Assembly (NCBI GenBank): GCA_964430685.1
Contig: CAYSGV010000002.1
Location: 1-34,876, forward strand
DNA from: an uncultured Gammaproteobacteria bacterium
GTDB lineage: Bacteria > Pseudomonadota > Gammaproteobacteria > CAYSGV01
Direction: 5' to 3'
Length of the DNA stretch: 34,876 nucleotides
Position numbers and translations under genes: made by a program. The notes beneath the pieces were generated by a model, which saw only the letters and a list, made by a program, of their open reading frames with translations, was not told where the DNA came from and searched no databases. Below, piece after piece: positions 19,441 through 19,644 of this stretch (position 1 is the first letter of the stretch; every line of letters begins with the position of its first letter).

Positions 19441-19644
19441 CTAGCAACAGAAACATTAAGGATTTATATTACAGCTACGAGCAATAAACAGACGAATTAT
19501 TATTTTGAAGGTATGTGGGGCTGGCATAGGATGTTGTGCATAAAGCAGGCAACATCAGATAGCACTTCTATTGTTATTTCGTTAGGGCTTACGACATTAA
19601 AGCTGGATGTTAATAGCAATGAATGCCTAACGAAATATAAATAA
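19441..19644 (+). pseudogene. Displaced relic of a divergent tssM 3' end (last ~61 codons, with no upstream gene body)
   Basis: 19462-19644 translates as IYITATSNKQTNYYFEGMWGWHRMLC...LDVNSNECLTKYK*. The intact tssM end at 15363-15545 reads ITITDTSNKQTNYYFEGVWGWYRLLC...LNSNKLACLS*. Both spans are 183 nt including the stop. DNA identity is high over the first ~65 nt, then decays. Confidence 0.8.

Follow-up and report, generated by a model that had tools for sequence, protein, structure and literature searches.

Integrative elements duplicate the 3' end of their target gene, and the resulting attL/attR repeats flank islands that sit in tRNA genes or protein genes. The joints of tandem duplications form at microhomology, after which the copies diverge (general bacterial genetics; cited in PMC3967940). 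In Salmonella LT2, the main and orphan members of the rhs pair STM0291/STM0292 share 522 bp at 95% identity (PMC3967940). In the clusters of Vibrio cholerae that encode a type VI secretion system (T6SS), effector genes are proposed to be sequentially displaced by homology-facilitated illegitimate recombination (HFIR; Kirchberger et al. 2017, PMC5361080). The subject of this work is an arrangement that is like each of these in part: a second, orphan 3' end of the T6SS gene tssM, which lies behind a cargo gene in contig CAYSGV010000002.1 (assembly GCA_964430685.1) of an uncultured Gammaproteobacteria bacterium. This complete metagenome contig of 34,876 nucleotides (nt), or 34.9 kb, was analysed as a whole and is called the window below. 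It holds a full T6SS.

The intact tssM (12318-15545, + strand) encodes a core protein of the T6SS membrane complex. The protein has 1075 amino acids (aa) and matches the Pfam models IcmF-related_N, IcmF-related, IcmF_helical and IcmF_C, and also TIGR03348 (E 1e-150). The last 60 codons and the stop of this gene, at 15363-15545 (+), have a counterpart at 19462-19644 (+), 3.9 kb downstream of intact tssM and directly behind the cargo gene. This counterpart is called relic 1. It likewise consists of 60 codons and a stop, and its translation is IYITATSNKQTNYYFEGMWGWHRMLC...TKYK*.

A preliminary description, made from the DNA letters, had read this layout as tssM, a cargo gene and then the orphan 3' end of a divergent tssM. 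That layout is indeed what is found, and the TssM identity of relic 1 is borne out. Relic 1 and TssM residues 1008-1075 are identical at 33 of 68 positions (49%), with a pairwise BLASTP E of 6e-20, which makes the protein similarity between 15363-15545 and 19462-19644 significant. By tblastn against the window, the match has an E of 7e-13. On the DNA level, 15369-15439 and 19468-19538 are 83% identical across 71 nt. Both ends measure 183 nt, as had been pointed out, but this exact equality arises from a 3-codon gap that is offset by a C-terminus that is 3 codons longer.

The similarity extends to the G-x-W-x-x-x-R-L-L motif of TssM C-termini. The motif sequence EGMWGWHRML aligns with QGPWAFFRLL and similar sequences in other TssMs, and with the TssM of enteroaggregative Escherichia coli (EAEC) in PDB entry 6ixh. 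The Pfam IcmF_C model alone gives the 76-aa relic fragment no score. When 1.84 billion cluster representatives were searched exhaustively by phmmer, the relic frame matched the window's own TssM (E 7e-9) and, apart from it, only three multi-stretch repeat proteins. This means that public data hold neither a stand-alone small-gene family for this sequence nor a closer donor tail.

The truncation can be read directly from the letters, as can the homology. The frame of relic 1 is open only from 19408, since it is closed upstream by a stop at 19405-19407, and it contains no ATG, GTG or TTG before 19513. Relic 1 therefore has no gene body, as had been stated earlier. Its left boundary lies within 19433-19462. 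The 31 nt on its 5' side are 45% identical to tssM and the variable tail is 46% identical, so the boundary can be placed anywhere in that interval. All in all, 19462-19644 is a non-functional pseudogene fragment, made up of the last 60-70 or so codons of a second tssM.

The arrangement also appears outside this one assembly. Logan contigs from other runs span the junction of tssM and cargo gene, the junction of cargo gene and relic 1, and the second relic region that is described below. Given that independent contigs cross these junctions, they are not an assembly chimera. One such contig of 2819 nt, from run X1, covers 18460-21278 without a mismatch. Among the contigs of 9 low-depth public runs there are no variants that lack the cargo gene or that carry the relic on a tssM body; all contigs are colinear or too shallow. 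Loose contig ends in the public runs lie outside the window and stem from short matches within unrelated contigs.

How the two tails came to differ can be seen from their codons. The method of Nei and Gojobori (NG86) gives a proportion of nonsynonymous differences (pN) of 0.10 over the first 26 codons and 0.50 over the last 31, with a proportion of synonymous differences (pS) of about 0.7 in both parts. NG86 inflates pS at two-fold degenerate sites, and codons were therefore also counted directly. Of the conserved degenerate codons, 14 out of 29 differ between relic 1 and the intact tail, where 16.8 are expected at saturation if codons are drawn independently from the window's own usage (P(<=14) = 0.17). 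By this codon count, the synonymous sites of the two tails are indistinguishable from saturated ones. This pattern of saturation around a constrained motif is a direct observation.

The saturation changes the meaning of the high DNA identity. The preliminary description saw the 3' end of the core gene as a homology anchor for recombination. The best DNA stretch has 62 of 78 nt identical, and the longest identical run is 21 nt (15393-15413, equal to 19492-19512). With synonymous sites saturated, the 79-83% identity over the first 71-78 nt reflects amino-acid constraint plus an AT-rich codon bias, and not recently shared DNA. The 21-nt run encodes T-N-Y-Y-F-E-G with preferred codons, and the same constraint and bias explain it. 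The anchor as proposed does not hold up against these numbers. A caution follows that is of wider use: where a short coding stretch is highly identical as DNA, amino-acid and codon constraint may be the whole cause, and the stretch need not be a recombination anchor. The sequence TATTATTTTGAAGG was also tried as a recombination core and set aside: its third near-copy, at 19384, is within chance, with at least 3 matches in 13 out of 100 shuffles.

Relic 1 shows no stop or frameshift in 61-79 codons, and its single indel is exactly 3 codons long. When neutral decay is simulated, the tail frame is still open in 23% of cases at 90% identity, and in 2% at the observed 61%. The open frame and the saturation with a constrained motif together argue that the divergence took place mostly while both sequences were working tssM ends, and that relic 1 was orphaned recently. 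In the intact tail as well as in relic 1, 35 residues follow the EGxWGW motif, versus 52-57 in canonical TssMs and in L004 and L007, two syntenic relatives of this locus. This shared short end indicates that the parent of relic 1 came from the same short-tailed sublineage as the resident tssM.

A second fragment shows that the 3' end of tssM has been involved more than once at this locus. Relic 2 (22162-22209, +; equivalent to 15363-15410) is a 16-codon piece of a tssM tail, ITITDTNSKQTMYYFS. It starts, to within a few nucleotides, at tssM -183, and the stop of an F-box protein gene cuts it short. It is identical to 15363-15407 at 36 of 45 nt, with E 6e-4 in blastn of the window against itself and E 0.006 in tblastn, and the longest identical run is 16 nt. 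At residues conserved in both full tails it has the replacements SN to NS, N to M and E to S, yet in its silent and early positions it is nearer to the intact tail. Relic 2 looks like an older, neutrally decayed copy of a tail of the intact type.

Relic 2 is joined to a remnant of another gene. At 22019-22171 (-) lies a relic of the 3' end of a 427-aa gene (23329-24612, -); it is 88% identical to 23329-23482 and has been frameshifted by a 1-nt deletion. The two relics meet at 22162-22173, where 427 -154 is joined to tssM -183 with a CATTA-type microhomology of 5-12 nt. If the start of the tssM tail is called a and the end of the 427 tail b, the + strand can be seen to have the order b, a: first the end of the 427-tail copy (equivalent to 23482), then the start of the tssM-tail copy (equivalent to 15363). 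Each dead tail shares a unit with the other gene's live one: dead 427 with live tssM, dead tssM with live 427. This order and this reciprocal placement match the novel joint of a direct tandem duplication that ran from tssM -183 to 427 -154. In all three respects, order, reciprocal dead and live copies, and microhomology, the pair is like known tandem duplication joints. Relic 1 is not accounted for by tandem duplication, its divergence being older than the event.

The same region had earlier been described as a unit of EEP, F-box gene and relic with the architecture of relic 1. Its parts exist: the 427-aa gene, the F-box protein gene (22205-23224, -; 339 aa, Pfam F-box E 1.3e-4, above the gathering score) and the relic of the 427 3' end. 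But one tandem duplication would explain both relic 2 and the 427 relic, and it would be simpler than the insertion of an F-box cassette. The cassette model is the weaker one because it leaves the tssM fragment at 22162-22209 unexplained. The 427-aa protein had been labelled 'EEP', a label without sequence support: there is no match in Pfam (E<=1), in NCBIfam or among PDB sequences. A homologue with 40% identity is present in L004 at 17250-18002, beyond PAAR and OTU genes.

Compared with the described systems, relic 1 is most easily set beside the orphans of rhs and cdiA. Like these it is 5'-truncated and start-less, lies in the same orientation downstream of an intact copy, and has an open frame. 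The earlier suggestion of a displacement as in rhs and cdiA thus stands as far as the start-less downstream fragment goes. It fails for the rest, in that a near-identical core stretch is lacking (62/78 nt, a 21-nt run, saturated synonymous sites), and so are a toxin domain and an immunity gene. The fragment is a structural domain of TssM and not a toxin, and, unlike in rhs and cdiA, a whole unrelated cargo gene stands between tssM and the relic.

The likeness to HFIR in Vibrio is that this too is a T6SS cluster, where cargo would have been added beside a conserved upstream gene while older material was shifted downstream and kept. The proposed mechanism, with one homologous and one illegitimate end, is also alike. 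In Vibrio the retained material consists of functional immunity genes, and the anchor is an upstream gene that is well conserved among close relatives. Here, by contrast, what was retained is the dead tail of a core gene, and its source is a very distant relative.

Elements that duplicate an att site also produce an intact gene, an inserted block and a displaced 3' fragment as a direct repeat, and here both relics start at or near the same position. However, the ORFs (open reading frames) between tssM and hcp, from 15.5 to 24.8 kb, contain no integrase and no recombinase domain in Pfam and NCBIfam searches. There is also no convincing identical core, since codon constraint would explain the 21-nt run, and the 'island' would be a single gene.

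We infer the events, their order and their direction as follows. In all probability, tssM (+) once converged on the 427-aa gene plus hcp (-) across a spacer of little length. Insertions would survive only in such a spacer, which is why cargo genes would accumulate there. All junctions are close to stop codons. A short ancestral spacer separating tssM from the 427-aa gene, with insertions tolerated nowhere else, would lead one to expect this. At least two additive and largely illegitimate recombination events would then lie behind the scars. The older one, event A, would be the tandem duplication from tssM -183 to 427 -154 with its CATTA joint, which left relic 2 and the 427 relic. In event B, which would be more recent, DNA of a distant sister lineage would have been joined at most 30 nt from the cargo stop, leaving relic 1, which would thus be foreign and would have come in together with the DNA on its right. 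The second tssM would have belonged to the short-tailed sublineage of the resident gene, and would already have been synonymously saturated with respect to it when the two met. That the orphan tail is a recombination scar in a cargo-accumulating spacer, with relic 1 foreign and the intact tail native, is the reading we favour, and it is given an even chance.

Two comparisons bear on this favoured reading. The 427 pair differs by 12% and the two full tssM tails are saturated, so the two events had partners at very different evolutionary distances. As to direction, relic 2 matches the intact tail at 36 of 48 nt and relic 1 at 32 of 48, and it shares Thr2, Asp5 and 17 of the first 18 nt with the intact tail. 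If relic 2 records the resident tail from before the orphaning of relic 1, then the resident had the intact type of tail by that time, which would make relic 1 foreign DNA and not the native end displaced. These few letters weakly suggest that the intact tail is native and that relic 1 came in.

A number of points weigh against this. For the direction, the 48 nt offer about 6 informative sites on one side and 2 on the other, with half of the 6 in a single codon. Relic 2 is short, with an E of 6e-4 as DNA and 0.006 as protein. The two relics also share a start at or near tssM -183 (relic 2 at -183, relic 1 anywhere from -183 to -214, with its recognisable homology beginning at the codon where relic 2 begins). 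Independent illegitimate events do not predict this, and a site preference could be behind it; the shared position is suggestive, no more. Identical 5' boundaries of both relics were at one point considered a sign of site specificity, which was dropped since the boundary of relic 1 can be anywhere in 19433-19462. A sister genome without cargo gene or relic was not found in the protein index, GTDB or JGI, and no event was directly observed.

The roles of the two tails may also be reversed. A cassette of a new tssM tail plus cargo gene could have entered via the conserved 3' segment of tssM and pushed the native tail downstream, where the same orientation, the position directly behind the cargo stop and the intact tssM upstream are what one would see. 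The homologues of the cargo gene occur in unrelated contexts, so the gene is mobile, an open frame is expected of a functional end that was recently displaced, and for T6SS clusters the literature already contains the HFIR model (PMC5361080). But 62 of 78 nt with a 21-nt run and saturated synonymous sites make a poor anchor, whereas in rhs orphans the ~95% identity extends over hundreds of bp (PMC3967940). Relic 2, the older one, resembles the intact tail and not relic 1, and the logic of toxin and immunity is absent, the TssM tail being a structural domain. Such a displacement is possible, if rather doubtful. That the resident tail was instead duplicated in situ, together with the cargo gene, and then decayed is very improbable. 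Relic and tail are direct repeats, and a tandem duplication does explain the other relic pair of the region, yet with synonymous sites saturated and pN as low as 0.10 in the motif region, divergence must have happened mostly under coding selection. Neutral decay to 61% would have left the frame open in only 2% of cases, and the one indel is exactly 3 codons.

It is equally hard to believe that relic 1 is functional, be it as a small gene (a 43-aa ORF at 19513-19644), as a regulatory element, or as a swappable stand-by tail whose use deletes the cargo gene. It has an intact frame that stops where the tssM tail does, a full-length TssM would result if the direct repeats recombined, and the orphan rhs C-termini (rhs-CTs) of Salmonella are a precedent (PMC3967940). 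Against a separately functional small gene, the 1.84 billion representatives contain no homologous stand-alone protein, and relic 1 has no match in Pfam or Rfam. Only 1-2 nt separate the putative ribosome-binding site and the ATG at 19513. For recombination there are just 21 nt of uninterrupted identity, and no deletion variant is seen in the contigs of 8 runs, where depth is low. In a wider scheme for this fast-evolving T6SS lineage, cargo units that lack an integrase would dock by preference at about -183 in the 3' end of tssM, each supplying a tssM tail or displacing one, in effect an rhs-like array on a structural core gene; the open relic could then be recombined onto tssM, which would switch the tail that contacts the outer-membrane part of the machine and shed the cargo gene. 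We consider this scheme improbable. An artefact, finally, would be either a chimera of two strains assembled at the TAGCAC repeat behind the cargo gene or a chance similarity. Contigs of runs X2 and X4 do break at this repeat and depth is low (2-8x), but the 2819-nt contig of run X1 crosses 18460-21278 without mismatch, no contig in any of 8 runs goes from the relic into a tssM body, and chance falls far short of accounting for the similarity. This leaves an artefact with next to no credibility.

If the orphan tail is only a scar, the locus is a small and clean example of putative effector genes piling up between convergent T6SS operons, and of scars whose age and source can be read from nothing more than codon patterns. 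If sister genomes reuse the same position in tssM, the orphan-module logic of polymorphic toxins would extend to a structural gene.

The preliminary description also suggested a recurrent route for swapping cargo genes downstream of tssM. Of this nothing was seen elsewhere. The survey of canonical loci used 80 T6SS loci from GTDB, 77 of them with a complete tssM end and 64 with at least 4 kb of downstream sequence. None of the 77 has a tssM-tail relic by tblastn at E<0.01, a test that recovers both relics in the window. The syntenic relatives show none either: in L004 a convergent sensor kinase gene follows tssM, with no cargo gene and no relic, and L007 has no relic in a sequence that stops 0.67 kb past tssM. 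A route anchored in tssM is not a general T6SS feature. Short diverged duplicates occur in 20 of the 80 canonical loci, a background count that is not comparable enough for use.

Additive rearrangements that leave relics around cargo genes do seem typical of this clade. In L002, a decayed fragment of 116 nt (7548-7663 versus 2133-2247) is found 66 nt behind an inserted OTU cargo gene. It is 84% identical to its source, a 499-aa gene at 926-2425 next to tssA, and has acquired one stop and one indel.

The intact tail of the window maps to residues ~1015-1055 of EAEC TssM, in its C-terminal domain (PDB 6ixh, 4y7m). As a whole, the TssM of the window is at most 24-27% identical to any public TssM, those of L004 and L007 included, and the best public match in the homologue search has 24% identity. 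Close relatives of this tssM were absent from an exact look-up, from a 5.8-billion-protein index, from a GTDB genome scan with the TssM C-terminus, and from JGI metagenomes scanned with the tail alignment and the TssM alignment. The nearest relatives of the window's TssC are 74-80% identical and come from metagenome contigs. Between loci with that level of TssC identity, TssM is only 25-27% identical, from which it follows that TssM evolves very fast here.

Past the EGxWGW motif, both tails in the window (15441-15545 and 19540-19644) end 17-22 residues sooner than those of relatives or canonical TssMs. The usual terminal NPF...F segment is absent from both.

Between tssM and the cargo start, beginning 13 nt behind the tssM stop, lies a near-perfect palindrome of 15+15 nt (15558-15587) with a T-run on its minus-strand side. 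It may be the terminator of a convergent minus-strand gene that was once adjacent.

The cargo gene as it stands (15594-19232, +) encodes 1212 aa, and had been described as a gene of that length. It is in fact truncated by a frameshift in the G-run at 19189-19193. One extra G connects it to a C-terminal extension in the shifted frame (19190-19432, +) and yields an ORF of 1279 aa with its stop at TAG 19430-19432. The shifted frame is open over 19169-19432, and the read-through protein aligns with P0010 (1257 aa, 49% identity) up to the last residues of P0010. A contig of run X6 has one more G in the G-run, restoring the 1279-aa ORF. The lesion, a 1-nt deletion, either is polymorphic in the population or marks a gene that became a pseudogene very recently.

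The cargo gene truly stops at the first TAG of the hexamer repeat TAGCAC (x2.8; 19430-19447, +). This repeat had been described as a junction with three in-frame TAG codons. It is real, but its TAGs are in the frame of the cargo extension, and in the relic frame it reads L-A-L-A-L-A. In run X4, a contig beginning at 19430 is longer by 12 nt, and it is at this repeat that the X2 and X4 contigs break; the repeat is probably length-polymorphic.

The cargo protein has no match in Pfam, NCBIfam or PDB sequences. Its homologues include P0010 and P0011; the only full-length ones are P0010 and a split gene in locus L001. The latter has AbiEii and UPF0150 genes as neighbours and no T6SS gene nearby. 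Shorter conserved blocks of the cargo protein recur in proteins of 820-1640 aa, some of them fused to DUF4157 of the extracellular contractile injection system (eCIS) type, and in an OTU protein of L002. Going by its location and its relatives only, the cargo protein can be called a putative T6SS effector.

An AlphaFold model of 15594-19187 has a predicted local distance difference test (pLDDT) score of 60. Foldseek matches of this model in the PDB have E 0.03-0.2 over ~330 columns, and all of them are aminotransferases of fold type I that depend on pyridoxal phosphate (PLP). This is a weak hint, from a predicted structure, of a PLP-fold domain in the cargo protein. The sequence SSLLKNEQLGLDKYQAGRI is conserved across the cargo homologues.

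At the N-terminus of the cargo protein there are two Cys-rich units (YFCxxC...KPxCC), encoded at 15609-15686 and 15699-15776, that are zinc-ribbon-like. The homologue in L001 is split into ORFs of 669 aa and 621 aa, and the split site has a 104-nt inverted duplicate that is 95% identical (10865-10968 versus 12262-12365).

The T6SS genes surround the region with the relics. On the - strand are genes for a PAAR-like DUF4280 protein and a MORN protein, followed by vgrG, two tandem tssC paralogues, tssB and tssA; tssJ, tssK, tssL and tssM are on the + strand. The variable region (15546-24818) is situated between tssM and an hcp-like gene (24819-25301, -) that closes it and that has a weak match to Pfam T6SS_HCP (E 0.0026). 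Beyond the hcp-like gene, the + strand carries tssE, tssF, tssG and a response regulator gene. G+C is ~36% in the core genes and 29-32% across most of the variable region.

The same DNA is present at low depth (2-8x) in activated-sludge runs of several studies. The bacterium that carries the locus is probably eukaryote-associated.

The tandem tssC (VipB) paralogues (4835-6274 and 6249-7739) are ~40% identical to each other. A tandem tssC pair is also found in the related loci L002, L003, L004 and L007, which makes it a trait of this T6SS clade.

Scans for Rfam elements and tRNA genes found none in the window, a promoter and terminator scan gave no signal above shuffles, and the non-coding stretches of the window hold no further relics. 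One contig (depth ~10) in runs X2 and X3 matches both 16290-16307 and 21052-21072, with 12 unrelated letters in between. This is probably a chance match from another organism.

Two more reading frames of the variable region have no family match. A 60-aa ORF behind relic 1 (19683-19865, +; searched in Pfam and NCBIfam) is a doubtful gene. It has a 19-nt tandem repeat inside it, at 19705-19741, and as 19 is not a multiple of 3 this makes a real gene unlikely. The other is a cargo gene of 346 aa (20275-21315, -). At its start, a TTTCCA repeat (x4.5; 21291-21317) encodes an (ME)n run, and short high-depth contigs of this repeat are present in run X12.

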